Source: Antedon mediterranea
Lineage: Eukaryota; Animalia; Echinodermata
Reading direction: 5' to 3'
NCBI RefSeq assembly: GCF_964355755.1
Contig: NC_092675.1
Coordinates: 8,985,812 to 9,049,811, forward strand
Length of the DNA stretch: 64,000 nucleotides
The translations under genes were made by a program, and so were the position numbers. Positions 15,601-63,108 of the stretch are shown here, in pieces (within the stretch, counting starts at the first letter, position 1; the number at the start of each line of letters is the position of its first letter). The notes under the pieces are model-generated. The model did not search any database. It was not told the DNA's origin and saw nothing but the letters and a program-made list of their open reading frames with translations.

Positions 15601-15615
15601 CGCAAGTAACCGAAC

Positions 15616-15735
15616 GTCTACAACCATACCACGTTGAAAACACCGGTTCTCCTCCGAACACCGCAGTTAAACAACGTCGGGCCTGGTTAGTACTTGGATG
15701 GGAGACCGCCTGGGAATACCTGGTGTCGTAGACCT
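15616..15735 (+). rRNA. 5S rRNA: 5S rRNA gene (last full copy of the array)
   Basis: Same roughly 120-nt 5S sequence (CTCCTCC loop-C variant), followed by the standard spacer. Confidence 0.9.
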
Positions 15736-20208: not shown

Positions 20209-20637
20209 TCAATTCAATTCAATTTCAATTTCTTTTATTTCGGAAATATCATCCATATTAATAAACGTATAAAAAATAAATAAAAAATCGTAAACTCTAA
20301 ACATAAATATATAGAATGCTTCTCCATCTACAATACATTTTGGAGTTATGGAGCATATTTTTGCAAACACAAGCAACAAGGATGTTACCACTATTCAACA
20401 TACGTTGCATAAAACCATAGGTAGATTTTAGCATGTACTCATTAAAGGAAGGGACACCATGTTCAATAAACATTGCACTGGCACTACTACTTCTAGAGAC
20501 ATTAAGTATACGGCGCAGAGCATTATTGTAACATACATTAAGAGATCTAATATTCTTCATACGATAGTTACACCAAAGGGCTGCACAATACATATTAATA
20601 CAGTAAGATCTAAAGAGACAACATTTAACATTGGTAA
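20209..20637 (-). mobile_element. 5'-truncated LINE 3' end inserted in the Penelope ORF
   Basis: LFRSYC..MY...LW.NY...YNNALRRIL......SAS.MF C-terminus, an (ATTGA)n tail, and a TTAAT duplication that splits the IIIKPADKG codons. Confidence 0.8.
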
Positions 20638-21431
20638 TTAATGATGATAGCTGACGCAATTTGGCAATGGCCTGCCTCTCTTGTTTTGAGAGATTGTCAC
20701 GTTTATCTGGACTCGGGACGTAGTTTTGGGTGGACGATTTTTAGGTGGATTCCAGGAACTTTTTGGTTTAAATTTGTTAACGTTGCCTTCGTTTTGCGTG
20801 GTGCTGCTGTCTGAATCAGCAAAATATTCACGTAATCGTAATCTTCTAGAGAAAGACTCTATATCCAAAGATAGTTGTTGTGCGCCGACCTGCCTTGGTT
20901 TTGGGCAGAATTTAAGTCCTCGGGAAAGAAGTTTTTTCTCTCCTTCGGGAAGTCGACAATTAATTTCAACAACTGAATCAGAGGTGTTGCTCTGATTCTT
21001 GTTATAAGTCCCAACGAACCTTCTGCAGGGTTTCCTAAAAGCCCTGAAGTCATCCGAAGGTAGAGTCATTTGTGTTGAAATGACCAAGTCTGCAGGTAGA
21101 CCAAATTTGTGATGTTCCCTTCGGGCCATTACCGTTGATTGTTTACGACAGTCATTGGCGATAATCCTGAGTTTGTTTTGAAACTAGGATGCAGGAAGTT
21201 CTCTTTTCAACTTCTTAGTTCTAGAGTGAATTTCAACGTCAAACTCAGTGAGTATTTTGCGGCAATTGCCAATTTGGATCTCATTGAGATCTCTAATTTT
21301 GTTCAAATACCTTTTTTAATAGATACAGTACTACATATCTACATAAATAAAGTACATAAAAAAAATTAAATTATATATATTTATAATTTTTTTTTTTTTT
21401 TTTTTTTTCGATCGAGATACGGTATTGTTCA

Positions 21432-21474
21432 GTCTATCTGAAGATCGTTTAACGTGAAACACCGTGTAATAGAC
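21432..21474 (+). ncRNA. Type I hammerhead ribozyme motif in a second, oppositely oriented pseudo-LTR-like segment
   Basis: Stem I GUCUAU/AUAGAC, core CUGAAGA, stem II CGU-uua-ACG (U-U at its base), GAAA, stem III ACA-ccg-UGU, cleavage triplet GUA. Confidence 0.75.
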
Positions 21475-22004
21475 GTCCGTGTTCCATCTACTTTATAAAA
21501 ATATATATTCGCTCTTGATTCAAATTGAGCACGTTTGCAGCATCAACGCATCTATATAAATTATATATATATATATAAATATGAATACAGGATTAAGATT
21601 ATAATATACAGCATTTAAAATTACCCACTATTAATTAATAAAATCACTTTAGATTAAGTTACTACAATCCTGAATTTGATTAGGGTGATTACTAAGCTTT
21701 CTTTTAAAATATGTCCAAGAGTTACAGACGGATGTATCTTTGAGATCCAAAGGCAAGGAATGCTAAATTTACCCGAATCCATACTTGTTATATATATTTG
21801 GCTTATAATATATAAGTTTTAATTGAAACTCTTAAACTATTTTTCCCTTTAGAATCGTAATGGTCATTTTATCGTCATTGATGTGATATATTTTCAATTG
21901 TTTTGTGCTAGTTCGATTAAAGTTAAACTTTATTCAATTAAACATGTTGTTTTGGGTGTTTTTTTTTTGCTGCTGGTGGTATCTACAATATCTAAGGTAC
22001 AAGT

Positions 22005-23230
22005 TCAAAGTTCAAGTTCAAAAAATATTTATTTATTCAACAATGGCATTATACAGTATAATATAATTATAGGTGTGTACATAAATAAAAACATAGTAAT
22101 AAGCCATCATTTGGGGTCTTCTCTAGAAGAAAACAAGTTTCTTGTCTCGAGAAAGACGCCAGAAACAATACACATACATTTACAATTTACTACATAAAAT
22201 AATAAATAAAAACAAAAACGATGAAATAAAAATAGATACTTTCAGTGTACTACAATCATAATAATATTAAAATTAGTATAAAGAAATAAGATATTTTTTT
22301 AAATTTTTTCGAAAAGTATAAAGAGATTTAAAATGCTTTAGTTTATCATCAAGATCATTCCAGATTCGCGGTCCTGAAACAGAAACAAAATATTCGGAAA
22401 TTTTCAGTCTAAAAGGAGGTACATCAAGATGCTGAAATTTATTGTCGATACGTAAATAGTACTTGTGTGATTTTTTATGATGACTTAATAGATTAGACAT
22501 TGTCACAGGGAGTTTGGTATTAAAGAATTGAAAAATAAAGGAAGCAATTTGTGTTGTAAATAGATCATGTAGACTAAGAATATTGAGTTTTTTAAGTAAA
22601 GGTTGGGAAGGGGCGAGATAGTGAGAGAAAGTAATAATACGGGCAGCACGTTTAATTTGTTTATTAAGTTTTTCTAAATTTGATGGGTAGTCGGCTGCCC
22701 AAATAATGTTGCAATAAAGAAGATGAGGTTGTATAAGGGTGTTATATAACTAGAGTAAGATATGTTGTGGAAAAAAGTGTCTTAATTTACAAAGGATGCC
22801 AATTACTTTAGATATCTTTTTAGATACATACGCTTGATGACTGGTGCATCTCAAGTATTCATGTAGATAAACTCCGAGGAATAGTACTTCGGGTTTACGT
22901 TCAACAATATTATTGTTAATGTAAATATTAAGATTAGAGAAATCAATTTGTCTTTGTTGAGTACGAAATAAAATGTAATTAGTTTTCTGTACATTAACAA
23001 TAAGCTTATTTGAGATGAACCAGTCAGTCATTTTATTTAGTTCAGTGTTGACGGTGTTATATAAGACATTGATATCAGAATGAGAAAACAAAATCGTAGT
23101 ATCATCAGCAAAGGATATGACTTTCAGAGTGTCACTTGATCTAGAAAGATCATTTACATAAATTAAAAATAGTAGTGGTCCTAAAACCGACCCTTGAGGC
23201 ACTCCGCAATTTACAGCCTCCACTGATGAT
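22005..23230 (-). mobile_element. 5'-truncated LINE (Jockey/CR1 group) RT C-terminal half
   Basis: GVPQGSVLGPLLFLIYVNDL...FADDT, SGPRIWNDL...FRKNLK and an (AACTTG)n tail. Confidence 0.9.
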
Positions 23231-23239
23231 TTAAGGTAG

Positions 23240-24035
23240 GCTATATACTTGGGGTAAATGGGGTCTCTAGTCTAACTTTAGAGGGGTCTGCCAGGGCCAA
23301 GGCAGTGTACAGATAGTCTGGAATAAGGTCATTTGGTATTTCTTACAATGTGCTAAATCATATAACATTGGTTGCTGGTGGTAACTACAATATCTAAGCT
23401 AGACCAGTTGGGGGAATGGAGTCTCTAGTCGAACTTTAGAGGGGTCTGCCAGGGCCAGGGCAGTGTACAGATAGTCTGTAATAGGTCATTTGGTATTGCT
23501 TACAATGTGCTAAATCATATAACATTGGTTGCTGGTGGTATCTACAATATCTAAGCTGGGCTAGTTGGGGGAAGGGGAGCCTCTAGTCTAACTTTAGGGT
23601 GTCTGGCACTTGCGGTGCAGCAGACAATTAGTCTGTTGTTATCCATTTAGTATTGTATGAACACAACTTGTTCATTTGGAATTAATTTTGAGTGGTACCT
23701 CACTCATCTATGCTAACCCGATTTTAGGCCCTCCCTCAGGGGGTCTGGCGGGCCTTTTGCAGCAGAGAAAAAGTCTGTCGTTTGTGATACTGGTATAAGG
23801 ATGCCAATGGGCATCCCATGGTGGTAAAATTAGGTGGTACCTATCTCATCTAACCTGGGCCGATTTTTTAGCACGTTTCAGGGTCCCCCCGGTCTAGACG
23901 CAGCAGGGGGTACCCGGCAGACTCCCATTTTCATTGACTTCAAGTGACCCCCAACACACTCAAATAGTCAGATAGCTCATCTAACCAAATGTCTCTGGGC
24001 TGCCGGTCTATAGAGGGCGCCCGGCTCCCGAGGTT
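23240..24035. repeat. Dispersed repeat with internal ~155-bp tandem units; a related copy lies at about 57340-57620
   Basis: Three to four degenerate units (GGGGTCTGCCAGGGCCA...TGTGCTAAATCATATAACATTGG). The block GGTCTA.ACGCAGC...GCAGACTCC.ATTTTCA...CTAACCAAATGT is shared with 57480-57600. Confidence 0.6.
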
Positions 24036-25544
24036 CAATTATAAATGGCATAACAGGTATTTTTCAAGATGCCGATTTTATTGAATACATGTCGCAATAT
24101 GATATTATTGGTTTGCTTTAAACATGGGAAAAATAGTGTCATATACAAAATTAGTGGATATAATTGTTTTTGGAAATTAACCGATAAACGTATTAGTTAT
24201 ATTGCAGAAGAACTTTATAGTGCAAGAAAATATATTTTGTGGGTGAAAATAAATGTTAGCATAAATAAGAAAGTAATTGGGTTTATATATAGACCTCCAC
24301 ATAACTCTAAATACGCATCAAATAACTTCTTTAACATATTGGCTGACGAATTTCTTCACTATATGTCAACATATAACCAGGAATATATCATAGGTGATGT
24401 TAACGGTCGAACTGGTAATGCGAAAGACTACATATCAAATGATGATTTCCCTTTAGGCTATGACGAGAACCTTAATGTCGATGTTGGCATCGACATTGTA
24501 AATCGTCTGAATAAGGATACTATGATTAATAATTATGGCTAGGACATTCTAGAATTGTACGATACGAATTGTTGATGGTAGAATAAACATAAAATGATTT
24601 TGTGTTTGCAATTACTTGCTATCAACGAGTAATAATGTTAAAAATATTAACTCCCTAAATATTGACGAAAGAATGAAATCTGATCACATGCCGATTTTTT
24701 TTAAAGTTTTATATGATTTACATGCGCATTGCCAAACAACGCAACCCACATTGAAGCAAAAATGGATATTAGATACAAATACACATGGGCAGATGACTAT
24801 GCTCAAACATTTAAAAATAGATGTTACCATGAGTACATGGACGAAATCGATAACAATTTCAAGTTGGCAATCAGCGAAAATAAAATTGAAATAGCTATTT
24901 CTTCATTTGAACTATGCATGTAAAGACATATTAAACCAATAATTAAAAAATCAGGAAAAGCAATTAATAATAATACCTGGTATGATAAAGAATGTATAAC
25001 CATGAAAATACAAGTTTAAAAAAAATTATCACAGTTTAGACATTTTCGAACAGAGGAATTTTTAAAAATATATATAAATACTAAAAGCAATTACAAAAAA
25101 CTATTAAAACATAAAAAAGTAGACTACTACAAAACAAAAAGGAAAAACATAATAAGACTCCTCAAAGATAACGATAAAAGATTCTGGCAAAACCTCTGAT
25201 AAGAAAAAAACAATCCATCAAATGAAATCTTATTAATGGAATGGCATCGATACTTTAGTAATTTATATTGCATCAAAGATAGCAATCGGTAGCAAACACT
25301 TCCAAAAATTGCAAACTTAGTGGACAACTTGCCCTATTTCAATCAAATATTGAACACAGAAATTAAATTAGATGAAGTCATAAGTGCATTTAAAGCACAA
25401 CAAAGGCTAAAGCCCCGGGTATTGATGGTATCAAGAGCGAAATATTATAATTGTCGCAAATTTTGTATATGAGAAAGTTAAGTTTCTCTTCAACTTAATA
25501 TTTGTCCGTGGGAATTTCCCTCAACGTTGCGCCACCAATGTGAT

Positions 25545-26870
25545 TAGAACAACTAGAGGGTGAGCTCGCTTCGCTCGCTCCCACTCTAGGAAGTGTGGAC
25601 GATGGTTCTCGGAATGATACAAATGTTCTCCTTGTACATTTTCTGTCGGTTACCATTATTGAAAATGCTTGACATTCGTAAAACTATTTCACAGTGTTTT
25701 AGATGATTAATAACATTTTAAAGTATAGTGTTTATTGTTTGGGGAGGCGGAGTTCATTTGAGGGAGGTGCTTATTCGAGGGATATATGTTAATTTTTTTA
25801 GTTTTAATAATATGGTAACATTTATAATCAAATGAAATCCTGTAATAGATATGAAAAGTGGTAAAAAAGAATAACAAATGCTTGGTAAATTGTAGATAAC
25901 AGTGCGATGAATTCTACTACAAATAGTATAATTGTGTTATTATAAATGTGCATGGACGTTTATTAGATAGTTGGGTTGGGGGGGGGGATTATTATTCAAA
26001 TGGATGTTTTATTGAAGAGGCGTTTATTCAAATAAATACCATCCTAATAATTATTAATACATTATTTAATTTAAACATCTTTTGAAACTGCCGTGACAGA
26101 GTGGGCCCAAGAAAGAAAGACATTACGGCTTGCAACATGGGCAGACATCTCGGTCCTAACGGGACACAGATAGCCTACAGTTATTCCTGCCAGCTTACTT
26201 AATAAAACTCAGCTATCGGGATTTCACTCGATTTTAAACAAAATTTCTTATCATCAAATCTCCCTATGTAATTTTATAATACTATTTCCCATAATAATTA
26301 TATTCCGATTCCTTATGGCATATATTTAATTTGATCTATATTAATTTGCAGTATAATTTTAATTTTTTAACTACTGTACCAACACACACGCGCGGTCCGT
26401 TCCTAAAATAAACAAAAAACTGAAATGGCTATGCAACTTAAGCTCCAGTCCTACTATCGGTTTGTTTCTTCCTTCTTCCAAAGGGGGACACTGTATTGAT
26501 TGATGGAAAGTGCCTGTTTCCAGTTACCTTTAAGGTCAAATCTATTATTTTAACTGCTCCCTTGTGTATAAAAGAGAGAAAATAGTTGAAACCAGGTTGT
26601 TGCAAGGTGAACCCGGAAATTACTTTGACCCGCGAAGAATTGAAATTGAGTTGAAAATCTACTGTTGAAATCATAAATTTTGTTAAAAAACTTTTTATAA
26701 TATCTTCCTAAGATAGAAATATGGAACAATAGCGTCGATGTGAAAACTAATGTTATCAAATCTACGTTTCGCGGTACATCTGAGATAGATCAGGTAGGTA
26801 TCCAAGGCGGAGATTTGTACCGAAGTTTTTGCATTGTGCTCACCTATGTCAGAATTAACCATAATTTATA
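25545..26870 (-). mobile_element. Non-autonomous Helitron-like insertion in the LINE (5' boundary approximate)
   Basis: Minus-strand 3' end shows the hairpin GAGCGAGCGAAGCGAGCTC followed by CTAG|T at about 25553. The LINE frame breaks near 25530 and resumes near 26881. Confidence 0.55.
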
Positions 26871-27869
26871 TATAGATACATAAAAAAGGAAAAATATTGA
26901 ACCTCAAAACTATAGAGGGCAATCTCTGATACCAATCAGGTTTCCTTTATATCATCAATAATAGACTCATAGACTGGAAAGATAAATGGAACATTTTGAA
27001 TTAGGAGCAAGCCGGGTTTAGGAAAAGATATCGAACCCTCGATAATATATTTATTTTTAACACAATGGTATCTAAATATCTTAGTAAGAAAAGGGGCAGA
27101 ATTGTTGTTACTTTTGTCGACTTAAAATGTCCCTTTGATTCAATAAACCACAATCTGTACCTTACTTACAAATTAAAGAAACTAGGTTTGCAAGGTGAAA
27201 TTTTAAATGTAATTATTTCACTCTAACGTTGTTTGTTAAAATTGAAAATAAATTATTGGATTCCCTAAAAAATAAAATTGGTATAAAACGAGGGTCACAA
27301 TTATCATCTCTTTTATTTCCTTCTACAAGATTTAAGTGATAATTTAAATTATACAAACAATCTGATAAAATACAGATTAGAGATTGTGAAATTAATCACT
27401 TATTATACGCAGACGATCTTGTACTAATAGAAGACACTGTTAAATGTTTACAGAGACTGATTAAGTATAGGTAAATATTGTGTTGACTGGGGATTAACTG
27501 TAAATGCAGAAAAAACCAAAATCAAATTAAATTATTAAAAGTAAGAAGTATTGCCAAAAAATGGTTTTATAAGAAGAACTCCATTGAAATTATTGATTCG
27601 TTTAAGTATCATGGGTTGTAGTTAGTGCAAATGGAAAGTGGAATAATACAATAGATAATAACACCAATACTCACATATGGCTCAGAAATATGGGGATTTC
27701 ATAGTTTAAAGAGAGTTGAAAAGGTACACACACAATTTTGTAGATATGCCATTGGAATCGGAAATAGTGCCACAAATCTTTTAGTTCTTTCAGAAATGCG
27801 GCGTTTTCCGATGAATGTAACTTGCATATTAAATACTATTTGTTTATGGTTATATATCTTAAACACTAG

Positions 27870-28773
27870 TAAAGTATGAACAGTATATTTAAATGGTGCG
27901 AAGAAAATGGTATGAAACTGAATGAGAAAAAAGCGGTTGAACTGCGCATTACATGTAAGAGAACACCAACTGAGTTTGACCCAATCACTGTGAATGGATC
28001 TGAAGTCAAGTGTGTTGAGCATGCAAAGTTACTAGGTGTCAATCTTGACCGTAAATTGTCGTGGCAGACGCATGTTGACTGTTTAACCAAGCGCGTTGTA
28101 CCAAGGTTGTTTTTTCTTAAACAACTCAAGAGGTCTGGCTTAGATAGACTGGAACTGCTCCGATACTATCAAACAGTGATACGACCAGTTCTCGAATATG
28201 CCTATGCTGTTTGGTCCCCGAGTTTATCCAAAGCACAATCTGACCAAATCGAACATGTCCAAAGAAGAGCGTGTAACATAATATGCCCCGATGGTACCTC
28301 GTATGCTGATACCCGCAGATACATTAACATCATCACTCTATCTGAACGCCGCGAGAAGTTTTCAAGAAAATTCTTTGATAAAATAAAAAAAGATCATAGA
28401 TTACACTCTCTCTTACCTAAACCTCCCACACACAACCATCAGCTCCGACGCGTTAGATCGTTCACCCTCCCCAAAGTCAGGACACAACGCACAAAAAACT
28501 TCATTACTTTCTCCACGGAGTTTTCAATGATTGGTGAATGATCAGAAACTGAGTTATGATAAGCAAATTGTGAACCCCTTTTGGTTTGTGTTACTGGATG
28601 TACTATGTTGGCCATTGAAAGACTGATTTGTGGACTATGATATATTTTAGTAACTTGTTTGGTCTGTGTTATACTATGTTTTTTTTTGTTATATTTATTA
28701 TTATATTTATGTCAACTTCATCACTGTTTATGATGCAATAAAGGAAATAAAATAAAATAAAAATAAATAAAAA
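27870..28773 (+). mobile_element. Younger 5'-truncated CR1/L2-type LINE nested in the older LINE
   Basis: 221-aa open frame (KLLGVNLDRKLSW..HV, IRPVLEYA..VW, IEHVQRRA) and an (AAAAT)n tail. Confidence 0.88.
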
Positions 28774-37168: not shown

Positions 37169-37746
37169 TTAATCTTCAATAAGTTTGCTAGTCTGTGTGG
37201 CAGAGGTATGATGATCTTCAGATAGCACATTATCCGGTGGCAGTTCACCTCGCAATTCTTCATCCTGAACTTCGCTGCTTGTATGATCTTCATATACCAC
37301 ATCGTGTATATCCATTCCACTTTCCCATTCGTCATCTAGTAGTTTGCTACTTTGCATTTGTACATCCACATTGACAACTTTCTTTTTACATATGAAATCC
37401 TTGATACAAGAACCATACCAAACAAATGCTATCAACATTATAATCACAAATACAGAACCAATAATGATCTGCATTACCTGGTGGGTATTGATTGATAAGA
37501 AAACATAGACACAATAGGTGTCTCGTTTATTGTAGTATGCATTGCATTCTATGCAATCAGTACTCTCAATTCCAAAGCAACTCTGACATGAATGATGACA
37601 GGGGATACAACTGTTCCTAAGAGTTCCATTCACTGTAGGTTTCACCAATAGATAGTAACCGTTGGCACACTCTCTTGGACCTATGTGGTCCTCAAGAGGA
37701 TGAGATGTAGTACCATAGAATACAAGTAAAAATTGTGTCAGTTTAC
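37169..37746 (-). CDS. furin: Furin alternative last exon 13B (Cys-rich repeat, transmembrane helix, acidic tail)
   Basis: [50 protein letters not shown] and a D/E-rich tail. Confidence 0.9.
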
Positions 37747-40700
37747 CTATAAAGAGAAAAACAAATATGCATATAAATGTATTGATAGCAATATACATTC
37801 AAATATTAGTATTACAGTTACTTTATTGTTACTGAATGTTGCAAAAAGCCTTAAAGAAATATTTATATGTATCATCACAAACCAAATATTTTCTTTTACC
37901 AAACATTATTAGAAATGAATCACCATTGCAATAACCAAATTACTGTTATAGTCACAGACCAACAAAGTATGATTATAGCACTAGGGCATTACATACTATA
38001 TAGTGCATTACAGGCTGAGGTGGCAGGGATGGTTACTGTAAGTCAAATTGTTCATTAATTTTAAAAAAACATGGCCCTGCATTTTCAAGATAAGTAGCGT
38101 AGCCATAGACACCATAGTGGCTGCATGGACAATGAAAATCATGTAATTTCATTGTGAAAAACCATCTGGGTACTCTATAAAAATGAATAACTGTATACAT
38201 TATTTACATATTATAATATTATTATATCTTAAATTTGTAGACATATTGTATGTCAGGTGGAAATGCACCACAACAATACTCAATTGATAACTTAATACTA
38301 CCAAGACTATTCTCACAAATTAGTTTCCATATTCCATCAATCCTCCTCCGCATCAATTTTTAGAAATCATTAAATAGAAAATTCACAGATTTTATCTGCT
38401 ACATTTCAAGATTAAATCAATCATTCATATTTCCATATTATACACAATTAATTGAACAAACTTTTTGAAAGTATGACCACAATCTGATGACTACGATCCG
38501 TAAACAAATACATAAAAATAAAAACCAACCTCGTAGTGTAATAATCCAAAGTAGGCCAACAAATATGTGTGTGTATGTATTTTTTTTGGGGTCAGATTTA
38601 TAATAAAATAATTGGTTCAAAACTTGCTTGTACAAAAATATTTATTTTCAATATGCATACAAAATTTTCCTAACACTCTTACTGCAACGTAAAGAAACAA
38701 ACACCTACAATTATTTTTATTTAGTACTGCACCAGGAACACATATTTAAAATATTTATTATATACTTTACTTAATGTGGGTTAGATTGGGAAAAATTCAC
38801 TACATATTAAGTATTAATTAATAATCTTTAAATTAATTTTATAAAAAGTTGACCCTTATCAAATAATTAAGATCAGAATGATTACAACTTAGTTATAGTT
38901 ATGCAAATATAACTATTGAGTAATTCCTTCAAAATACCCCCACCTTTCAAAAACAAATCTGCTATATATTCAATCCTGTTTTTGACTTTTTACTTCTATG
39001 AAACAAAAACTTTGACAAAGAAATACAAAATTAAGAAATGCGCTGTACGGCAAAGAAAACTCTGAGGCACATATCCATCGTTGCTCAAGCATTTATTAAA
39101 CAAATGAGTTTCATTATACGGCAACACAACCAAAGTATTCTTATCACAATTTCGGTTGCCGACTCTAGCCAGAAGTGGGTCCAGTTGGGTTCCATACAGA
39201 ATCAAAGAATATTCCAGAAGAGAACCTAGTGATAAGATAAGGAAAACAACAAAGCTGGCTAACAAAAACACCGATTTCCATCAAATACATTCATGGTTAA
39301 GATATATTTGACGTGGCAATATATGTACGGTCAGGCATCCAGCACAATCATGTTAGTCAAATTGGCAGTGAGTAGTAAGCACATAGCAGCAATGTAAAAG
39401 ACTTCTTACACTCACCTGAATTAGCTTTATCTCCAACATTCTTAACCTCTAATGTCCAGATTCCACGTGGATCCTCTCCCCAGTTATGTGTTGTCATAAA
39501 GTCCCAGTTATTAAATCCTTTATTCGAATAGTCTTTATTTCGTTTTGTTAAAATATTTGATTTTGTTCCCATAGGAGAGGTTAAGAAAATAACAAGATCT
39601 CCTCGGTGATTGAAATTGAGAGATATTCTAGCTTGTACATGTTCCAAGTAAATAATTGAATTGTCTGCATTTGCACAAGCTGTAGTATTATAATGTATAA
39701 GTAATGACCCTGTCGACGGAATTGTTCTGAAAAAAATCCACATGCATCCAATTAAATAAAAATAATTAAATCAAGATCCGATACTCTATAAAAAAAACCC
39801 GAGATTTATATGTAGGTTCGGATGGGATACTTCTTGTTATAGACCAAACAGCCAATTTTATCATTTTCATTGTAATTCTAGTAGGTTGATGTTTTATAGC
39901 GTTAAACAGGCCTCTTATTACTTGCTGTTTAAATTTAGACTATAATTCTATTTCACCTAGTTTTTAAATGCTACCTGCTTTTTAATAAATAAACCATCTG
40001 ACAATGTAACTATAATTAAAAAGCTGCTTATTGAAAATGTTAATGTATTAACACATATATATTAAGATATTGCTACCTTGAATTTGTTAGCACTGCATCT
40101 GTGCATACATGTTGCTCAGGAACGATGTTCCATTGTTCAGCCATAGTTACCATTGCCCCAGCATTCATCAACCCAAAACCATAGGCATGACTCACTAAAT
40201 CAGAATATGGTATATAAAATATGCATACAGGTGCTTTCATTATTATTTATTCATAAAAATAAACATATGTATTTACAGTATGAATAAGAGAAATTATGAA
40301 ATGGGGAGGACTAGGCCAATACTAGATTAACTGAAACAACTAGGTTAATTTTGTTTTCACAATTCCACTTCTTTAGTTTCTACCATTACTTATAATTTAA
40401 GTACTTTTTTGGTCATTATTAATGCCTATTGGTCTCGACAAATTTGAATAAGTGGTACTATAAGATTGTTGCCACTAGGATAATCACAATCGGCTTGAGA
40501 TTTTTGTTTGATTGCACAAAAATTTGTAAAAGCTGAATGCGCATTAGAACTATTATCACCATTAGATATCACTTTTCCATTAGATAGAACTAATACCAAA
40601 CAGCACTTGATGCGCAACCAATCAAATGGAAAGGACACACTTCAGGTGTATTCACTTTGTTTACAGCAGCAGTTTTTAATTTAAAGGATAAACAAATATG

Positions 40701-43700
40701 AAGTACCAAACAACAGTGGAAATAAAATAATTCTCTGAGTGAACTGAACTTTTATTGTATCTCTTTTAAATCGAGTCGGGTTGGTGAACATCAGTCCAAA
40801 ATACGCAGAATTTTTTCCAAAATACGTCAAGTTGAGGGTGCTATACTAATCCAAAATACGCGAGTCTTTCCAAAATACGTCGACTTGAGGGCGCTATTCA
40901 TTTTCCAAAATACGCGAATTGTCCAAAATACGTCAAGTTGAGGGCGCTATAAATTATCCCAAATACATGAATTGTCCAAAATACGTCAAATTGAGGGCGC
41001 TATTTATTTCCAAAATACGCGATTTGTCCAAAATACGCGATTTGTCCAAAATACGTCAATTTGCAATTTGTGACCGCTAGTAATTTTCCAAAATACGTCA
41101 ACTTGAGGGCGGCAAACTTTTTTCCAAAATACGAGAGCCTTTCCAAATGTATCATATTGAGAGTGTTAGGTAAAATTACAGTTTAATGTATTAAAAAAAA
41201 GTTTCTTGGAATAAAACAAACAAGTACATTTTAGTTATAAATGAAAGTGTTAGAAGGCAGCATTTTTTGTAAATAAAATGTCATAGAGTAGCCAATTATT
41301 ATTTTTCAATGTAATCATTTATTACTGAATAAAAACAAATATGTGCCAACATCAGTCAATAGACAGTGCCTATAATATACATTAATAATGTCTGAACGAT
41401 GTACGATTGCATTGCCAGACATAGCTAGTTTAAATGCGGCATAAACCGGCTACAAAACCAGCATGTACGTATATAGTATTTAAGTATAGTCATAGGTATG
41501 TGTTATATATTTGGTGATCTACAAAATCGATATTTTTCCCGAGCTCGACAGACAAACATCGCTTTCAATTTAATGTACAGTACTATGGTCTAATAAGTTA
41601 CCTAATCATAAATCTAACATAATAATTATTTCATATAATAATTAATATATAATAATAAAAAGCATATGGTATTGTGATTAAAATAATATCAATAATTAAT
41701 TGGTTAGAAGAAGTAAAGGAGTTATTTAAATTGCGTATTTTGGAAAATGAATAGCGCTCTCAAGTTGACGTATTTTGGAAAATTACAAGAGGTTCCAAAT
41801 TGACGTATTTTGGACAAATCGCGTATTTTGGAAAATGACTAGCGCCCTCAACTCGACGTATTTTGGACAATTCGCGTATTTTGAAAAATGAATAGCGCCC
41901 TCAAGTCGACGTATTTTGGAAAGACTCGCGTATTTTGGATTAGTATAGCGCCCTCAACTTGACGTATTTTGGAAAAAATTCTGCATATTTTGGACTGAAT
42001 TTCACCAACCCTATTGTTTAAATCAGAGGCACAGTCTCAATGAGATGTGCAACAAGTTTACAGTGAAAAAAATACACACACACTTATATATATACAACAA
42101 CAAAAAAAATTAGACATACTGTAAGAACAAATTACAAAAAGTTTGTAAACTGAGAAAGATTAAAAACTAAGAAATTATATATATCATTTCGTTTGTTCCA
42201 TGCCATGGTCAGAAATATTTTACAATGTTTGTCGAAAATATTACTTGATAATTTGTATTCATCATGGGTCAATTGAGATGGATTTCAAGGTCATCGAAGA
42301 GAAAGTGGTATTTAAGAGCTAGTAGTAAACAATTCCCAGAACATGAATAGATTATTGTTGTTTAGTTCATCTTTAAGGTTCATGAGTATTGGTTGTGTTG
42401 TAATTATTTCAAATGTTGATGTGGTCCGTCATCACCAATTACTTAATTTATAATACTGAATACTGAATACTGACTTTATTTGTCCATCATCATCATCATA
42501 AAATAACAACAGAAATTCTTCTTGAAGATTGACAATTATTAGTACAATAATAAATAGATATACAATATACACACACATAATTGCACAAAAAATATAAGTT
42601 ATGAAACACGGTGTAAAAATGACTAGGTATTAAAATTGAATAGGATAATGAAACTATTATAATTTGTTATTCTACGTACCTTGATACCCTGCCCCATTTG
42701 TAGTCCAGTCATTTTCAATCAAGCCTTCAGCTTGTGATGTCATTACAATGATATGCTGTAGATCTCTCCATGTCAGTTTAGAGCTAAAAAGTAAATAATG
42801 TGCAAAAACCCTTGTAGTGGACACAACGAGAATTACAAATAGGCACAGCCAGGAAAAACATTTGTTCACAAAGTCTATTGTGTGGTTGTAGGAAATACTG
42901 AATGGCGAGAATTTTTAAGAGATATTAGGCTGTACATGCTTATGCCTTTTCTAGGCCTAATGAGAAACAATCATGCATGTTTAGTTGTAAATAATAGAAA
43001 GCTTTCAATTTGTGACTATACCTATAGAAACAAGTTAGGTCATGCTAATAGACACGTTTCGCGCTCGCGAGGTCACGGTCAGTTTGACCTTTTAGTGGGT
43101 ATACAATGGTAAACAAACACAGCGAGAGGTATGTTAAAGCATGGGAGAACTGAGAGATGATCATCTTAAAAAGCAATCGTCAAAACTAGCCTTTTGATGG
43201 AATGGCATGGTAAGGATGTTATTTATTTTCTAAACTTATGTTTTATATTCACTGTAGAATTATTTGGGCATTTGGTTCGGAATCATCGACTTTATTTATG
43301 TATTGTCATTTTTGGTTTGACACATATATATTACAGTGCATTTAATACATGTTAACTGTTGATTTTATTTACAAATGTTGCGTAAATATATTAATTATTA
43401 TCTTTCATTCTTCTTCATGCTCCTATTGCATTTTCCATGTATTATGTGATGTTCTTCGGCGCTTAAACAGACACCCAAGCCTCCTAGGCCTAGTAGACGA
43501 AGTACCGCATCAGGCAACGCCACCGGGCGGGCGGAGAGCCTCGAGCACATCGTGGACGTACCTTTCCTTGAAAATTTCCAAGATTTTGCGCCACTATCCT
43601 TCGGAGCCGACGCAAACCACTCAGCAAGTGTTTGAAAATTAAAAACAGGAATATTATTCAGTGATTTTGTGTAGTTAAATTCACGATTTATCCAACATAT

Positions 43701-46700
43701 GCAACATTTATGATGCACTTTGCAACAAAAGCACTCGGCAGTCGCCATTTTGCTATGCTTCAACACGCACTAGGCGAGAGGTGTTTGGTTTGTTTACAAA
43801 TCTATACCCACTATTTCTGATTTGTCGCGAGCGCGAAACGTGTCTATTGTGCGTATGCAGGGAAGTTGAGCCATGCATTCTCACTCTATTCCTAGCCTCA
43901 ACACAGCAGATTTGGTGCAGGTAGGTCCTAGTTTGTCACACCTAATGATTTGTAGATCACTTACTTTGCTTCTAATGCCAGAGCACAAATAGCTGCCGCC
44001 AGAGGCGCAGAGGCTGATGTTCCACTGTGCTGCTCTGTGCATTTCTTATTCAAATCTGTTGTAATCTGTAATCAAGTTGAAAACCTATTTAGAGTTCAAC
44101 AGTCAACATTTTCAAAATCATAAAGGAGAAGGCATTGAAGGTAAATAATATGCTGAAAACTTTTAAATTATGAATAAGAAATAAACAAAAATGATAGGCC
44201 AGGTAGTAGAATGTATGAATAGTACATACAATAATTATTAAGGAACGTTACAACTGATTGCAACACTGAAGAACATAATGGGCAATGACTGTATCCACAA
44301 TAACTATTAAAGTATTTGCATTTACAAAATAAAATCAGTGTAGATACATACTACTTCTCTTTCTGCACCGCTTCCACTACTATAGGTTGTTGCTAGTGTG
44401 GATGCACATCTTTCTGAATACCAAGGCACTTGTCCTGATTCAGACACGCTGCTTATTGATAGAGTGTGCACTGTGTTCGTATAACCATCGCAGTTACAAC
44501 TATCTTGAAAACGCCCACCATTACCGGATGCCCATACAAAGATTGAACCAAGGCCATTTCTTCCCTAAAATGTAGGGTTTTTTTCAGAAAAAAAAATAAG
44601 GAGGTGAATGAATAGATTTTTGCATGTTTGGTAAATTATTTTTATTTTGCCTTTATTAGTATGAAAAAAACAGAAATTAGGGGACAGCCTGCATCCAACA
44701 AAAAATGTACCTTTTTAATACCATCTTCAAAGGCTTTCTTTGCAAGTGGTCCTGGGCCATCAACAGTTTTGCCATCGTCATCTGGTCCCCAACTTGAGCT
44801 ATAAATATCAACATGCTGAGGAGCGTGGCTTAAAGATTTTGCTTCGACTAGATCTGTCACATCACCATCTAGCATACGAACACCTGACCAAATAGGATAC
44901 ACATACATTTAAACAGGCCAGAAAATTAGTATTATTAACATAGTTACCAACACGGTCCAGCATTTCAAAGTGATTTTTAATGAATCACGCATTTTGACGA
45001 AACACATGCGTGACCACATATTTGTCACACATTTAGCAGAAGTATATGCATGATCATTTTTTATCACTATTGAGAGGAAAATGCATTCAAATTAATTAAA
45101 ACAGTTACGTGAGTATTCATTTTTTAGGTTAATAAACACCATCCATATAAAAAAAGCCTAATATCATTGATGAATTACAATTCATTTTTTCGTGGTCAAT
45201 CACCGCGATGAAGGATGACCGATAGCAGGCATGCGTTAGTCACGATCGCAATTACTAAATGTAAAATTATACGGTGGACTGACACGACACAGTGATATGC
45301 GATGTTGTGTGCACGCATTTATACAGTAAAATACCTCAATTACTCTTTAATTAATTTATCTAGATAATCAATTGTCTATTTTTACTCGGGGTACCCGAGT
45401 CTAGGACTTACTCATTTTCTCCTCCACCATCTGGACACTATTGAGTAAAAAGTGCGATTTTTAAAGTACTACTCCTCCATTATTAGTTGTAGTATTGAGC
45501 TGGGATTTGGCATGAATATACTACAGGGACATGTTCTCAAAGCTATAGAGCCGGATTTTTAATTTTTTGTTAATTAATTTGTTTAATTAAGAAGCCACAA
45601 TGTGTGACACACACCACAGCGTTATGTAGTTATATGGTTATATGCGGCTTCTTGGCGTAGTGGTTATCACGTTTGCTTAACACGCAGAAGGTACCTGGTT
45701 CGAGCCCGGACGAAACCTTTTTTTTTTAAACTTTATGGTGAAAAGTACTGTATACGCAATATGATAATTATACACAGTATATCTTATTTTTATTATTTTT
45801 TTAAATACTTATTTTGTGTAATCGGTAATTATCACTTTTACACATGTTTATTTTTCTTTGTGCTTATTACCATATTTATTTGTAATTTAAATGCATTAAA
45901 AAACATTCTGTAACCCACATTTTTAGTGTAAGTGGGTTTCGTAGTGTAGTGATTGTCAAGTCTGCTTAACACGCAGAAGGTTATCACGTTTACTTAAAAA
46001 CACGCAGAAGGTACCTGGTTCGAGCCCGGGCGAAACCTTTTTTTTTTAACTTTATGGTGAAAAGTAGTGTATAAGATAAGATAAGATAACTTTTATTGAT
46101 CCTCAAAAAGGAAATTCATTGCTCATCATAATAACAAAGAACACACAATAAAAACAAATATAGCATAAAACCATTCTTATAAAAAACATCTAAAAAATTA
46201 CAAGATAAAATTATCTTCTTGACTTCCTGTTGTACTAGATGATACCGGAGGGAATAAAGGATTTAGCAAATCGATTTGTTTTCACACTGAGGAGCCTCAA
46301 TCTACCACTTGGATTAAGTTGGTCTATGATTACTTTGTGGAGAGGATGAGAGGCATCCGACTCAATGCGTTCGAAATCTTTCTGGAGGTGTTCTAGGTGC
46401 ACATCGGTAAAGGAAGGCAGTTCCAGACCAATCATTTTACCCGACGGATGAAAGTTTCAAGGCGTCCTTTACGCAATATGATAATTATACACAGTATATC
46501 TTATTTTTATTATTTTTTTAAATATTTATTTTGTGTAATCGGTAAATACTCCTCCCTTTCGTTGTAGTATTGAGCTCGGATTTAGCATGAATATACTACA
46601 GAGACATGTCCTCAAAGCTATAGAGCCGGATTTTTTAATTTCATACCGGATGCAGCCATATCACGTCTCGAAGATGGTACCGTATAGCCGTTTTTGGTAG

Positions 46701-49700
46701 CGCGGTTATTGATGTGTATGTTACGTTACATCCGGTCTTATGACGTCATTACAGCTTCTTTCGCTGTACCCCGAGTATTGCACATTCGTGCTTGTTTTAA
46801 ATTATCCCTTTACTATATTTATATATATTATATATTTTTATCTTTATAGTATATTTCATTTAACATTCTTACTTGTATTTAATTTGTGGTAAACAAATAA
46901 AACAAACAAATCCAATTAATGTTGGGACATATCCATATAAATATGATTTGAAGATCACTGTGTTACCATGAAAAATGAATATACTGTAGCTGTATTTAGA
47001 CCTCACCTCCTATTGCTGCATTATATGCAGCCCCTACACTACACAAACCATTATTTGCAATGGCAGCCACCTCACCAGCACATCGTGTACCATGCCTACA
47101 AATAAAATTATGAAAAGGTAATAATTGAAAATCCAAATTTATTTTAAAGAGTTATGGGCAAATTATAGATTATTAATTCTGAATAATTTAATAATCCTAT
47201 TTTATTCAAATGTAAATATACATCATAAGGTGGTTACATATTATAGTAATATTAGTGAGCTTTCGCAATGGGACAGTAGACGATATTATTAATCTGTGCA
47301 TGCGTATAAGCCCAATATACTCCTTTCCATTCTTGTCGGACTGTCTTTGATCGATTTAATGTTCGGCCCGATGAATGATCCAATGAACTAAAACATCATA
47401 TTTTATGTATATTATATAGTATATGTAGACTACGAATTCTCTTTGTTTCTTCTTGATTCATAAACAAAATAAGGATGCTTGTATGCCTCTTTAAAAATTT
47501 TGATTAAATGTCATGCTAACAAGAATTAGTCTGACAAATGCAGAAACTTTTCAAACACGCCCATGAAGCATGCATGCTCTGTTAATTACCGTCCCCTTTG
47601 TTAACCGTCCTGATGCAAAAGCTCCCTATTACGACAAATACATAATATAAATAAAAGCAACTGATTTATCCAGATGAGTGCAAGAAAGAATACATTCATG
47701 CCAACCTGTTTAGATCATTTTTTGTTTTTCGTGGATCTGGAAAATTATCACCATCATTCAAATCCGTACTTGCTTTTGGATCCTTTGAAATGTGTGCAAA
47801 TTTAAAGGAAAGAATGAAATAAATACCCATCATGAAGTTTATCCCAAGACCTTAGCCTATCTAGCTATATAAAAAGTGCATAGAGGCACACCTTTGTGAG
47901 TTCCCTATTTTGCATGTGTAAGATCTTGTACATCATGACCTATACATACATATAGGTCCATGATCATACCATAGAACTGTGCTGTGGGTGTCTAAAAAAC
48001 TTGTATCTCAGATATCTTAATCTTCATAATATGAAAACTAATGGCCTAGCATTATTTTTTAATTGAATTGACACTTGGAAGAAAGATTGGAATGTTCCAT
48101 TCATCACCAAGCAATACACAACGTATATTAAATCTTTTATTAAATAGATAATAGCAAATTGTTGGAGACATTCTCATTTTCGAGATTTGTCGTGGACAGC
48201 TCTTGTCTCTCCTCAGTGCTCCCTTTTGTATGTTTCACTGAAAGGGATATATAAAATTAGTATCTTTTTTATTACTGTTTTATTAGGATGATAAAATCAG
48301 TACCGAAAGTATGAACCAACTTTATATACCATAGAGTAAAAATTTTAGAAGTACAAATTTTGCCCTTATTACGTAAATTCATATATAGAAACATCTGCAA
48401 CTAAAAAAATTGAATCTAGAAAACATATTAAGTAGTGTATATGTGAGATCCAAGTATTCTAAACACCTCAAGATTTGTTTAATGACATCAGTAGTGAAGC
48501 TAATGAAAGCAAATGATTACAAATGATTACAAAGACATTATTCTTGTTTTCATAAATTACTGTTTTTAGTTAATAATCTGCTGAAATTTGAAATTATACT
48601 TTATTGTGCTGTGTGCTGTAATGTTACTGTTAGTGCTTTGATAACCAATTACGTTGTACAGTATATTATTACCTTATCTTTATATTGAATTAATGTTATA
48701 AAACGTTAATAAAGAAACCCAAATAAAAAAGTGTATGAAATTGAAAAGTGTTGAATGATGTCCGACCTGTTTTCATTGGATGGATTGTAGCGAGGGGTTG
48801 GGTCCAAATCACCATCATTAACATCTTTGCTTGCTACTGGGTCCTATACACATAATAGAACACAAATAAACATCCAAATAAAACATGCAAACTTTTTAAG
48901 ATGTATTGTCCCCTGAAAATAACAAAGTATCATAATGAGCGCATAAATTATGCAAAAGCTCGGCCAGCAACAGTTTATCAGGCCTCGAATTTTACCGCGG
49001 CCACCGCGGCCAGTGCCGTCGGTGCCCTCCCAGTTGGCCTCAATGCCCTCGAAAATGAATAGCACCCACGGCCACTACTGGCCTGCCCTTTTTTTGCGTT
49101 GGCCGCGAGTGCCCTTCCCGAGTTTTACCACAATAAAAACAACTGAATTAGATAGAAAATAATGTCAAGAAGATTTGTTTACACGACTCGGACGAGACGC
49201 AAAACTATCGCCTGTCTTCGTTGCAAGGGGATTTCCCTAAACGCATTTATTAATACACAAACACTGAAACAGTAAACAAAACATCGAACATTTTGTAACC
49301 AAAACAATATCATCCCGGCCGCCGTGCGTGGTAAATCATGATATAGATAGTACATTAAAATACAGGGGTGTACACTTTTAATAATCAAGCTAATAACGTT
49401 CCTCGATCGGAGGTTACTGAAAGTATTAAAGTCGCACCACCCCACCTCAATAATCGAGCTAGCCGCCTTCGATTACACGCACTCCTAGCTAGCCTAGCCT
49501 ATCCTCCCGCCGCCGATCCGGTCGAACACACGCAATTCAATTCATTGGGAAAACAATTCTATTTGACGCACACGCACCCTCTGATAAGAAATTTCACACA
49601 CGACGTCCGTACGTCGTACGCGAAGGATCGGATCGTTGGAAAAACAATTCCTTTTGACGTACACGCACCCTCTGAAAAGAAAATACCATGTGCGTTCCTG

Positions 49701-52700: not shown

Positions 52701-55700
52701 ACTACTACTATAGTGTACAGTACCTAAATTCTTCGATTTTTATGTGTCAATTTCCACTACAAATTCTTTCTTACTATTCAAATCCATTCTTAAAAACACA
52801 TTTGGCCAGCCAAGGGTTTTGGAGAGTTGTGTACAGTACAACAGGAATGTAAATACAAAAAATATAGGGTGTGTCAAATATCGGAGGGGTGAGTGGCTAT
52901 GGAGATATGAAGTGGAGAGACCAAGAAGCCTACTGATCACTTGAATATAGAATAAATGTAATATTATTGCCACAAGAATTTAGTATCTCAGGATTTAGGT
53001 AAAATTTTAAACCATTTTTCTTTTGAGACTCATAAAAAACTGTCTACAGATGACGATGTAATAACATGATATTTTTCTGATTACAATCATTATTGTCTAG
53101 AGGGACATAAAAATAAAGCAGATGTGATATATTTCAAACCATGAAAGCTAGTTCGAAATATGTATACCTTATATACAGGGCTAGACTGTTAACGAGATAT
53201 TGTGAGAAGACAATCCCATTTTATCATACATTATATTATGTAATAAATTTGGTTTGTAATTTATGTAAAACCAAAATGGTTTAAACTGTTTTTTTTTAAA
53301 TTCACACATGTTATTTAAATGTATCAAATTAACACAAACCCATACAAATAAAAACAAAATGTATAGTATTTTGAGTAAAAACGAAATTTTAAGATACCAT
53401 GGTAAATTAGCGAAAATTACTCACGCCATTGCAATATTCTATTTCAACGGCCATCGGAAGCCTCTATATTCACGACGTCACATATACACACGATAATATC
53501 GAGAGCGTGTATGCCGCCCGATAGTCAGAGTGAATGATCGACGGCCTGGAAAGATACGCGAAGCGTTGACACTAATACTAATTTATTCAATATCTAATGT
53601 TGTTGAAATATAGGTCCCTAAAATGTACTTCGTTTGTTCTAAAACCCGAATTTAGAAGGCCTAACTCCCAAACCTTTACTAGGCCGCCTAACTAGGCCCC
53701 CAATCCAGCGCGCGGAGTCAATCAACCACCCACATCATGCGGCGAGGCTCCGTTTCATGTGCATCCAAGGACCAAAGCGATATCAACAACTTGCTGTGCT
53801 CATTGTCAAGCCAAAGTAAAATATGAATAAAATTCGTTTTCGAACCGCCTGATTCGTGACAAATAAATTATCATCTCATATTACTAATTTAATTCTGCTA
53901 AACTAAAAACTAAAGAAACTAACACATTTTAGCAGTATAAAATACGAACGATATACAAAATACACGAACGGAAAATATGGATACGCATCATTGCGCACAG
54001 AGCTGTATCCCGGACAACGTTGCCAGGCCAACTTCGGTATTGCCAGAAAAAAACTTTTGATTTTAAGATTTTAAAGCGTCATTTACTCGCTGAATAACCG
54101 TTTATATGGTAATCATTTTATCTAACAAAATTCTAAATACGTTTCTGCAAATGTACAAGCATTTTTTAGAAAATACTCCATAGATTTCAAGAGTTATAGC
54201 CAAAAAACTGCAAATTGTCCATTGGAGGGATAGGAATATATTCGCAAAGTGATGTCACCCGCGAATTTTTTTGATTTTCAAATGGGGCTTTCCCCAAAAG
54301 GGCCAATTTATATTTTGTAACAATATACATTCTAGCAACACCTAATAGCCCCCAAAACATCATTCTAAAATGAAAAAAATTGAAAATCCATTTCAGGTCC
54401 ATTTTAAGGAAATTAACTGAATTTGTCCACTAACACACACATTGAATATATCTACTGTAGGCCTACAAATTACGGATCTGTATACAGTCCATATACCATG
54501 CAGGATTTCCTCCATGCCTATATACAAATGTGTTGTGCAGGAATATCGCAGATAATGCATTTTGCAATTCTAAATCTATTATCCCACGAACTAATAACAA
54601 GGTCCAACTCAAATTTGTAATATATAATAATATAATATATTGTGCCATATATAAAAAAAACATTTATGAAACATAACTTTTTATTTGATATAAATAATAC
54701 TTACATAATTACTTTGCAAGTCAGGATGTACACGTTCTATACCATCATCTAGGATAGTGACCACAACACCACTGCCAGTGTAACCTTTGTTCCAAGCCTG
54801 TACAACATTCATATCTAGGCCGTTCCGATGCTGACAAAATAATAAAACAACAAATATGAACTAAATACAAAGTAGAATGTTTTTGCCAGATAATTGTGTG
54901 TATTAGTGAACATTTAGTCTGTGACAAGGCCTTCCACATTTCCTACAATTTGCAAAATGCAGAATCATGTCGTCTGCAATCAGATGAAAGCTGCTTCACA
55001 ATATTTAAAGATGTATTGTCCCCCAAAACATGAAAAATGAAGATTAATTAAATCAGATTTTGAATAGGTTATTTTGTAGTTTTAATAAAGTGATTCACTT
55101 CCGTAGAAAAAAATAATGTTTTCACTTATAAAATAACATGATAAATGGTTAAATTCACCCAAAAATCCATTGACTGGCAGCCAATTTGACCATTTTTTGC
55201 TTTAAATTCCATTTTTTCAGGTAAATACATTTTTTTTCAATCCAATTTTTGGTCGAATTCAATAACTATTATGTGACATTAAAATGGTATATTAAAAAAA
55301 AAAATACATCTTTAAAAGAAATGTTACATATGAATTGACATAAACCCTCACTAAACAAACAATACTGTAACTTTATCAAACTCATTTAGTTCCACAGTTA
55401 TTGAATATGCTTACAACATTTAAAGTTCATCAGCTGTTAGGATTTAGAACAATGCATTACTGTTGAGTATAAATTAATGCACCATTTAGAAAAGATGAGA
55501 AAGGATTGCATGTTTGTATGTATGATGATCAACATAAATTTACTACTAAAACGTGTAGTATATTTGCTCACACTTAACACTGTTTCCAGTTAGAAACTGC
55601 CACCGCCAGCGTTTTTAGCCCAATTCGATGTTTTTATTCAAGCTGATTGAAACTATGTATGTGATCTGATTTATATGTAATTTAGACTAAAATAATCATT

Positions 55701-60699: not shown

Positions 60700-63108
60700 C
60701 CCACCTTGGTACCTTCTGTTTAAAAAAGTTCTGAATCGATTTTCATCATTATTTTTTCATAATCGATCAGTTCTCAGCACTATGTCAAATATCAATACAA
60801 ACAAAATTTGGTTTTGAATATCATAGAAATTGGAGTGGGGTTCGTTTTCATGGCCTATCTAACATTTTCAACCCCCCTGTGAAAGAAAGTCCCCCTCTGT
60901 TTAAAGAAATTCTGAATCGATATTCTTCATTATTTTTTCATAATCGATCAGTTCTCAAGACTATGTCAATTATTAATACAAAATGAATTTGGTTTTAAAT
61001 CAGAATATCATAGAAATTGCAGGGGGGGGGGGGTTTGTTTTCATGGCCTATCTAAAATTTTCAACCCCCCTGTGAAGGAATGACCCCCCTTTGTTTAAAG
61101 AAGTTCTGAATCGATATTCATCATTATTTTTTCATAATCTATCAGTTCTCAACACTATGTCAATTTTCAATACAAAAAAAATTGGTTTTAAATGCGATTA
61201 TCACAGAAATTGGAGGGGGGTTCGTTTTCATGACCTATCTAAAATGTTCAACCCCCCTGTGAAAGAATGACCCCCCTCTGTTTAAAGAAGTTCTGAATCG
61301 ATATTCTTCATTATTTTTTCATAATCGATCAGTTCTCAACACTATGTCAATTATTAATACAAAATGAATTTGGTTTTAAATCAGAATATCATAGAAATTG
61401 GAGGGGGTTTGTTTTCATGGCCTATCTAAAATGTTCAACCTCCCTGTGAAGGAATGACCCCCCTTTGTTTAAAGAAGTTATGAATCGATATTCATCATTA
61501 TTTTTTCATAATCTATCAGTTCTCAACACTATGTCAATTTTCAATACAAAAAAAAATTGGTTTTAAATGCGATTATCACAGAAATTGGAGGGGGGTTCGT
61601 TTTCATGGCCTATCTAAAATGTTCAACCCCCCTGTGAAAGAATGACCCCCCTCTGTTTAAAGAAGTTCTGAATCGATATTCTTCATTATTTTTTCATAAT
61701 CGATCAGTTCTCAACACTATGTCAATTATTAATACAAAATGAATTTGGTTTTAAATCAGAATATCATAGAAATTGGAGGGGGTTTGTTTTCATGGCCTAT
61801 CTAAAATGTTCAACCTCCCTGTGAAGGAATGACCCCCCTTTGTTTAAAGAAGTTCTGAATCGATATTCATCATTATTTTTTCATAATCGATCAGTTCTCA
61901 ACACTATATCAATTATTAATACAAAATGAATTTGGTTTTAAATCAGAATATCATAGAAATTGGAGGGGGGGTTTGTTTTCATGGCCTATCTAAAATGTTC
62001 AACCCCCCTGTGAAGGAATGACCCCCCTTTGTTTAAAGAAGTTCTGAATCGATATTCATCATTATTTTTTCATAATCGATCAGATCTCAACACTATGTCA
62101 ATTATCAATACAAAACAAAATTGGTTTTAAATGCGATTATCACAGAAATTGGAGGGGGGGGGGGTTCGTTTTCATGGCCTATCTAAAATGTTCAACACCC
62201 CTGTGAAAGAATGACCCCCCTTTGTTTAAAGAAGTTCTGAATCAATATTCATCATTATTTTTTCATAATCGATCAGTTCTCAACACTATGTCAATTATCA
62301 ATACAAAATGAATTTGGTTTTACATCAGAATATCATAGAAATTGGAGGGGGGTTTGTTTTCATGGCCTATCTAAAATTTTCAACCCCCCTGTGAAGGAAT
62401 GACCCCCTTTGTTTAAAGAAGTTCTGAATCGATATTCATCATTATTTTTTCATAATCGATCAGTTCTCAACACTATGTCAAATATCAATAAAACAACATT
62501 TGGTTTTAAATCAGAATATCATAGAAATTGGAGGGGGGTTCGTTTTTATGGCCTATCTAAAATTTCCAACCCCCTGTGAAGGAATGACCCCCCTTTGTTT
62601 AAAGAAGTTCTGAATCGATATTCATCATTATTTTTTCATAATCGATCAGTTCTCAACACTATGTCAATTATCAATACAAAATAAATTTGGTTTTACATCA
62701 GAATATCATAGAAATTGGAGGGGGTTCGTTTTCATGGCCTATCTAAAATTTTCAACCCCCCTGTGAAGGAATGACCCCCTTTGTTTAGAGAAGTTCTGAA
62801 TCGATATTCATCATTATTTTTTCATAATCGATCAGTTCTCAACACTATGTCAAATATCAATAAAACAAAATTTGGTTTTAAATCAGAATATCATAGAAAT
62901 TGGAGGGGGGGGGGTTCGTTTTCGTGGCCTATCTAAAATTTCCAACCCCCCTGTGAAGGAATGACCCCCCTTTGTTTAAAGAAGTTCTGAATCGATATTC
63001 ATCATTATTTTTTCATAATCGATCAGTTCTCAACACTATGTCAATTATCAATACAAAAAAAAATGGTTTTAAATGCGATTATCACAGAAATTGGGTGGGG
63101 GTTCTTTC
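60700..63108. repeat. ~187-bp tandem satellite, 13 units
   Basis: TTCTGAATCGATATTC...GATCAGTTCTCAACACTATGTCAA recurs at about 60729, 60910, 61104, 61291 and onward to 62984. Confidence 0.95.

Follow-up and report, generated by a model that had tools for sequence, protein, structure and literature searches.

The furin gene of Antedon mediterranea carries a real pair of exons, mutually exclusive by reading frame and likely both ancient and functional, within the part that encodes the catalytic domain, and exchange of one copy for the other is predicted from the sequences to tune the specificity of the protease rather than to flip it. Both forms of the Antedon protein are already annotated in RefSeq, without comment. 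What is new is that apparent swap pairs, seen as annotated isoforms, are confined to the same 26 residues in Asterias rubens, Acanthaster planci, Apostichopus japonicus and the hemichordate Ptychodera flava.

The Antedon furin gene and its duplicated exon

The window, by which is meant the whole 64,000-nucleotide stretch of A. mediterranea DNA analysed, holds on its minus strand the furin-1-like gene of this species (100% match in the P-domain exon), and the RefSeq cluster for it comprises three proteins, X1 (exon 5A, long tail), X2 (exon 5B, long tail) and X3 (exon 5A, short tail). The hallmarks of a furin-type (S8B) enzyme are present, namely a signal peptide, a prodomain with a terminal basic motif, the Asp/His/Ser triad, the oxyanion Asn and a P domain. 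Coding exons 1-3 (58307-58155, 57089-56985 and 56785-56684) encode the signal peptide and prodomain in a spliced model identical to the RefSeq proteins, constitutive exon 4 (54705..54830) the catalytic Asp and the equivalent of the S2 residue Asp154, constitutive exon 6 (47007..47095, 89 nt) the catalytic His, and exons 7-12 (39416..44883) the remaining catalytic domain and the P domain. Immediately upstream of the start codon lies a 187-bp satellite of 12.7 copies (60712-63104), and elsewhere in the window are 36 5S rRNA genes on the plus strand (156-15734; 236-bp units split into blocks of 1 to 12) and several broken reading frames at about 19200-28600, which presumably are retrotransposon reverse transcriptase and endonuclease pieces.

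Two alternative terminal exons, both opening with the last P-domain strand, finish the protein. Terminal exon A (38996..39225, minus strand) gives the short hydrophobic tail of the 633-aa X3, possibly a lipid anchor or a tail-less membrane form, and terminal exon B (37169..37746, minus strand) gives the Cys-rich repeat, transmembrane helix and acidic cytosolic tail of the 749-aa X1 and X2. Four isoforms are possible from 5A/5B and the two ends, and 5B with the short tail is the one missing from the cluster; both tail forms are present in the crinoid Anneissia too (short-tail match P0002). In C. elegans BLI-4, Drosophila Fur1 and vertebrate PC5/6 A and B, isoforms likewise arise from alternative 3' exons. 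Those isoforms alter tail and sorting, whereas the 5A/5B swap alters the catalytic domain. A second Antedon gene of the furin clade (P0154, 1056 aa, with a long Thr-rich and Cys-rich tail) nests within the echinoderm furins and has a single annotated form, with an A-type segment.

Exon 5A (48767..48843) and exon 5B (47706..47782), which alternate between exons 4 and 6, are each 77 nt long on the minus strand, and the AG/GT ends, stop-free frames and peptides that the earlier note had given for them are confirmed there. Each has the same single open frame, with the final Arg codon split over the junction. The proposed equivalence to furin 168-193 is borne out by an alignment free of gaps with human furin (PCSK3; PDB 4OMC and 5JXG), in whose numbering, counted backward from His194, residues are given here. 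5A, the canonical-type copy, has D181, Y186 and E191, and 5B has L175, F181, K186 and L191, the acids of the one and the hydrophobic residues of the other at 181 and 191 being present as claimed. Exclusivity by reading frame also held when splicing was scripted, as either copy alone gives 749 aa, both together a stop after 195 aa and neither 169 aa. The 5A splice reproduces RefSeq X1 (P0001) or X3 (P0121), and the 5B splice X2 (P0122, XP_071954110.1), to the letter. The 5B isoform matches human furin at E 5e-194, no gap falling in the segment or in any catalytic motif, and its predicted model superposes on 5JXG with a TM score of 0.97 at 1.1 Å. AlphaFold2 pLDDT over residues 171-190 (66/64 for 5B, 64/59 for 5A) does not distinguish the isoforms and is evidence neither way.

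The two copies are identical at 46 of 77 nucleotides and 14 of 26 amino acids, with silent changes in 4 of the 13 full codons that encode the same residue in both. Similarity between their 300-nt flanks is no better than chance, since out of 200 shuffles 98 and 20 reached the observed score, which argues that the duplication is old. The residues kept by 5B are not a chance set, since 8 of 9 near-invariant convertase positions are retained and only 6 of the 17 others match 5A (Fisher p = 0.014), a non-random pattern that would be expected of purifying constraint.

The donors read CAG|GTCGGA (5A) and CAG|GTTGGC (5B), with a pyrimidine at +3, a position held by A or G in each of the gene's 11 remaining donors, and 5B is alone among 14 internal or terminal exons in having an AAG acceptor; these features fit a regulated, minor exon 5B. 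Of five sequencing runs listed, none on record as RNA, four were examined, of which run X1 is RNA-like and the other three DNA-like; run X1 fits RNA because a GT-AG joint is found there and in none of the DNA-like runs. That joint takes 5A to exon 6 (48767>47095) at a depth of 85.6, with 27 letters on its short side. In this one sample, read at the level of contigs, which drop rare forms, the 5B joint (47706>47095) was not found and no joint from 5A to 5B is listed, and a single unbroken contig spans 5B and both flanking introns at a depth of 11.5. The result records use of 5A in one sample and is no proof that 5B is absent, and since the one RNA-like run has the 5A junction alone, 5B is probably a minor form or confined to certain tissues. 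The case for 5B expression rests on the RefSeq model X2, the B forms of other species being likewise RefSeq gene models, and no B form was met among the unnamed transcript-derived proteins searched. The 13 substitutions listed across the four runs, none inside 5B, are too few to weigh.

Between 5A and 5B lies an intron of 984 nt (47783..48766, minus strand), within which, at about 48030-48370, is a very high-copy repeat of contig depth up to 1e6. This length and the short AG-free zones (50 and 70 nt) argue against steric exclusion, and a distant branch point was rejected. A 22-nt inverted repeat joining the intron downstream of 5A and the exon 6 acceptor (-12.9 kcal/mol) was considered as a loop-out device and rejected, since the best intron RNA pairings are equalled by 13, 11 and 18 of 25 shuffles. 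Exclusion may instead come from competition between weak splice sites together with decay of the frame-shifted products.

The swap in other ambulacrarians and its counterparts

Equal-length X1/X2 pairs differ at 12 residues in Antedon, Asterias rubens, Acanthaster and Ptychodera and at 8 in Apostichopus, every difference falling within the 26-residue segment. Swap pairs thus occur in 5 of 10 ambulacrarian species, Antedon included. An A-type form alone is seen in Anneissia (both of whose proteins are of that type), Asterias amurensis, Glandiceps and two sea urchins of the genus Diadema, an absence of B in which annotation gap and true loss are not separable. That the relatives' pairs also come from tandem exons would follow from these isoform pairs at the protein level. 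The earlier note would have taken a lack of 5B junction reads, together with absence or frame disruption of 5B in close relatives, as the mark of a dead exon, and relatives turn out to have retained a second copy.

A scan by identical flanks placed this in a wider sample, with 466 of 626 stored proteins scorable and 69 groups sharing identical 110-aa flanks, isoform sets of amphioxus, molluscs, arthropods and vertebrates among them. At least 8 segment differences were seen among the members listed in only 5 of the 69 groups, all ambulacrarian, the other groups having at most 3, and so no swap pair was seen outside Ambulacraria among the listed members of the isoform sets sampled. The vertebrate furin and PCSK4 isoforms sampled have one form of the segment, unlike the Antedon pair. 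Among 80 metagenome loci, 63 with a readable segment, neither a swap pair nor any B transcript evidently from an echinoderm turned up, and a search of 50% representatives gave no ambulacrarian B fragment. Two unnamed convertase contigs (L001:650-775 and L034:644-769) have Ile at 191 in an N-I-N context, as in sea star exon B.

In a gene tree built outside the exon, from 400 residues downstream of the His in 40 rows (2 rows without the motif omitted), the swap-bearing genes form one clade (95/90) that groups with furins and is split from PC1/PC2 at 94/90. Within the segment, residue 175 is V in 5/5 A copies and L in 5/5 B copies, D or N187 occurs in 5/5 A copies and 0/5 B copies, and residue 191 is E in every A copy, as it is in the hemichordate B, whereas the echinoderm B copies have L, I, I and M. 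A hydrophobic residue at 191 is thus found in 4/4 echinoderm B copies as against 0 of 87 non-PC2 segments. L175 is less distinctive in a broader sample, drawn with a B-type profile, where 27 of 117 segments have it. The tree of the 26 columns, which is weak (61/78), groups all five B copies, with the hemichordate outside and the branching order that of the species. Pairing of A with B inside a species was rejected at p 0.001 for Acanthaster, 0.038 for Ptychodera and 0.049 for Asterias and not for Antedon (p 0.51) or Apostichopus (p 0.18), in a test that is partly circular in that the A and B labels outside Antedon were set by resemblance. Descent of vertebrate furin from copy B, for which the shared T187 might speak, is unsupported, both fish furins lying on the A side without resolution.

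Known exon pairs of this kind, PKM exons 9/10, FGFR2 IIIb/IIIc and OGDH 4a/4b, are like 5A/5B in that the homologous exons lie side by side, match in length and phase and are of old origin, with core residues retained and surface residues varied. 5A/5B is unlike them in that the swapped piece is the loop adjoining the catalytic His of a protease. A catalogue of human duplicated exons (PMC8373072 supplement), consulted beside passages and the supplement of PMC9741552 on tandem exon duplication, has PKM, FGFR2 and OGDH as positive controls and no PCSK or FURIN row. Among the rows examined from the supplement of a human screen for mutually exclusive exons (PMC5740500), the only convertase entry is a candidate, intronic and dissimilar, for the following exon of PCSK4. 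The passages seen of an echinoderm matrix-protein review (PMC10381214) mention furin without isoforms, and term searches of PMC11394684, PMC5037460, PMC12405487, PMC10387760 and PMC3545927 gave nothing further on a furin exon swap. No description of mutually exclusive exons in furin or a convertase was found in the literature searched, most subscription papers lying outside its reach.

The exchanged loop and the substrate pocket

Kept in both Antedon forms are S172, D174, N176, D179, P182, P184, R185 and N192, and the B loop of the five species departs from A at 175 and 187-189, and in echinoderms at 191 as well. The earlier note had placed a switch of the S2 pocket at residue 191. The part that stands is the change from acid to hydrophobic residue, kept in 4/4 echinoderm B copies; a pocket switch through loss of that acid is not supported as stated, the contact there being by backbone, Ser being common and the hemichordate B having E191. 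According to passages of PMC12703725, PMC11859198 and PMC8453481 the S2 ligand is contacted by the side chain of Asp154, by the backbone carbonyl of Asp191 (in the first two of these) and, through water, by the side chain of Asn192. The Asp154 equivalent sits in the common exon 4, and Asn192 is retained in 5A and 5B. Ser occupies 191 in 24 of 87 non-PC2 segments, arthropod furins being among those that carry it, and I, L, M, V or F is found there in other convertases in 13 of 117 and 2 of 27 segments of two further samples, which argues that an acid is not required at 191 and that its change is tolerated. With the contact made by backbone, Asp154 supplied by exon 4, Asn192 kept and Ser191 frequent, loss of the acid need not abolish P2 recognition. 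Judged from the residues exchanged, an adjustment of local charge and shape is a more likely effect of the B loop than removal of that recognition.

Residues D174, D179 and D181 are taken here to be the third calcium site of furin. D174 and D179 are kept in all copies and D181 in 4/5 B copies. The switch in calcium dependence read into F181 and the basic RKTK fails as a conserved function, because both are peculiar to Antedon, D181 and Y186 being retained in each of the four remaining B copies. Among the B copies F181, D183 and K186 are confined to Antedon 5B; D181 is present in 84 of 87 non-PC2 segments, Y186 in 98 of 98 non-B segments, and K186 in 3 of 117 other segments. These private changes may be either further specialisation or early decay. 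The proposed likeness of 5B to PC2 holds at two positions, the hydrophobic 191 and the aromatic 181, the latter not present in other B copies, and does not extend to the gene, which clusters with furins apart from PC2 (PCSK2). PC2 has Asp at the oxyanion position, and the Antedon enzyme keeps the furin-type Asn.

Competing readings and significance

The reading preferred here, that an exclusive 77-nt pair with a single origin before the echinoderm-hemichordate split gives two enzymes, both predicted to be active, is held with fair though far from full confidence. One copy would enter each productive mRNA, with 5A as the default and 5B, with its weaker acceptor, turned on by splicing factors in some tissue or stage, and messages with both copies or neither would be cleared by nonsense-mediated decay. 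The two enzymes are predicted to differ in the charge and shape of the rim on the S2 side, and the core S2 contacts would stay because the eight residues from S172 to N192 are kept in both forms. The B changes would then adjust how tightly the P2 residue, bulky substrates or the prodomain are bound, leaving the cleavage motif unflipped.

It is unlikely, though worth serious consideration, that the pair is ancient and functional elsewhere in ambulacrarians while Antedon 5B itself is decaying or near-silent, its enzyme being scarce or of low activity. Such decay would suit the longest branch of the segment tree (1.2), the private changes at Y186 and D181, the gene's sole AAG acceptor, the missing 5B junction in run X1 and the two A-type proteins of Anneissia. 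Against it 5B keeps its length, its frame, both splice sites and the near-invariant residues despite saturated flanks, X2 is modelled by RefSeq, and K186 does occur in a few other segments; the lack of listed substitutions in 5B points the same way, with numbers too small to weigh. That B is a hard switch of specificity or calcium dependence, PC2-like in dispensing with a basic P2 residue or with a calcium site, we consider quite improbable. The E191 change to L, I or M is conserved in three echinoderm classes, PC2 carries F191 and Y181, and the introduction of PMC11859198 has S2 delineated by Asp154 and Asp191. Against it, residue 191 makes its contact by backbone and is commonly Ser, D181 is kept in 4/5 B copies, the hemichordate B has E191, and the passages of PMC3266396 and PMC13419460 that deal with the two essential calcium sites mention no residue from the swapped exon.

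Independent exon duplications in several lineages, or B isoforms that are in part annotation products, would leave no single ancient switch. Mean B-to-B identity (15.3/26) barely exceeds A-to-B identity (14.8/26), half of the species have no annotated pair, and there is good documentation, in passages of PMC9741552, that tandem exon duplications can be convergent. Yet it is the same exon in five orthologous genes, no outgroup sampled has a pair, L175 and, in echinoderms, the hydrophobic 191 fall on the same copy, the B tree follows species order, and three of the five within-species pairings are rejected, and this reading is therefore given very little credence. A single origin before the echinoderm-hemichordate split would be the simplest reading of the sequences. 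That split lies over 500 million years back. A bolder form of the preferred reading, put forward tentatively and as something short of an even chance, is that a switch of that age rebuilds the S2-side loop so that one gene makes two convertases with different substrate sets. The echinoderm B form, with a hydrophobic residue for the acid at 191, would serve a tissue-specific job such as the processing of neuropeptides or connective-tissue proteins, and splicing would thereby fill the role that additional PCSK genes play in vertebrates.

The active sites of convertases resemble one another so closely that their selectivity resists both explanation and targeting. A natural pair of enzymes 8-12 loop residues apart, in two phyla, would be a ready-made test of the role of furin 168-193 in substrate choice, the effect of the swap on specificity being at present a prediction from sequence. 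If the preferred reading is true, this would be the first splice switch within the catalytic domain of a convertase, so far as the literature searched reaches, and a molecular character common to echinoderms and hemichordates.
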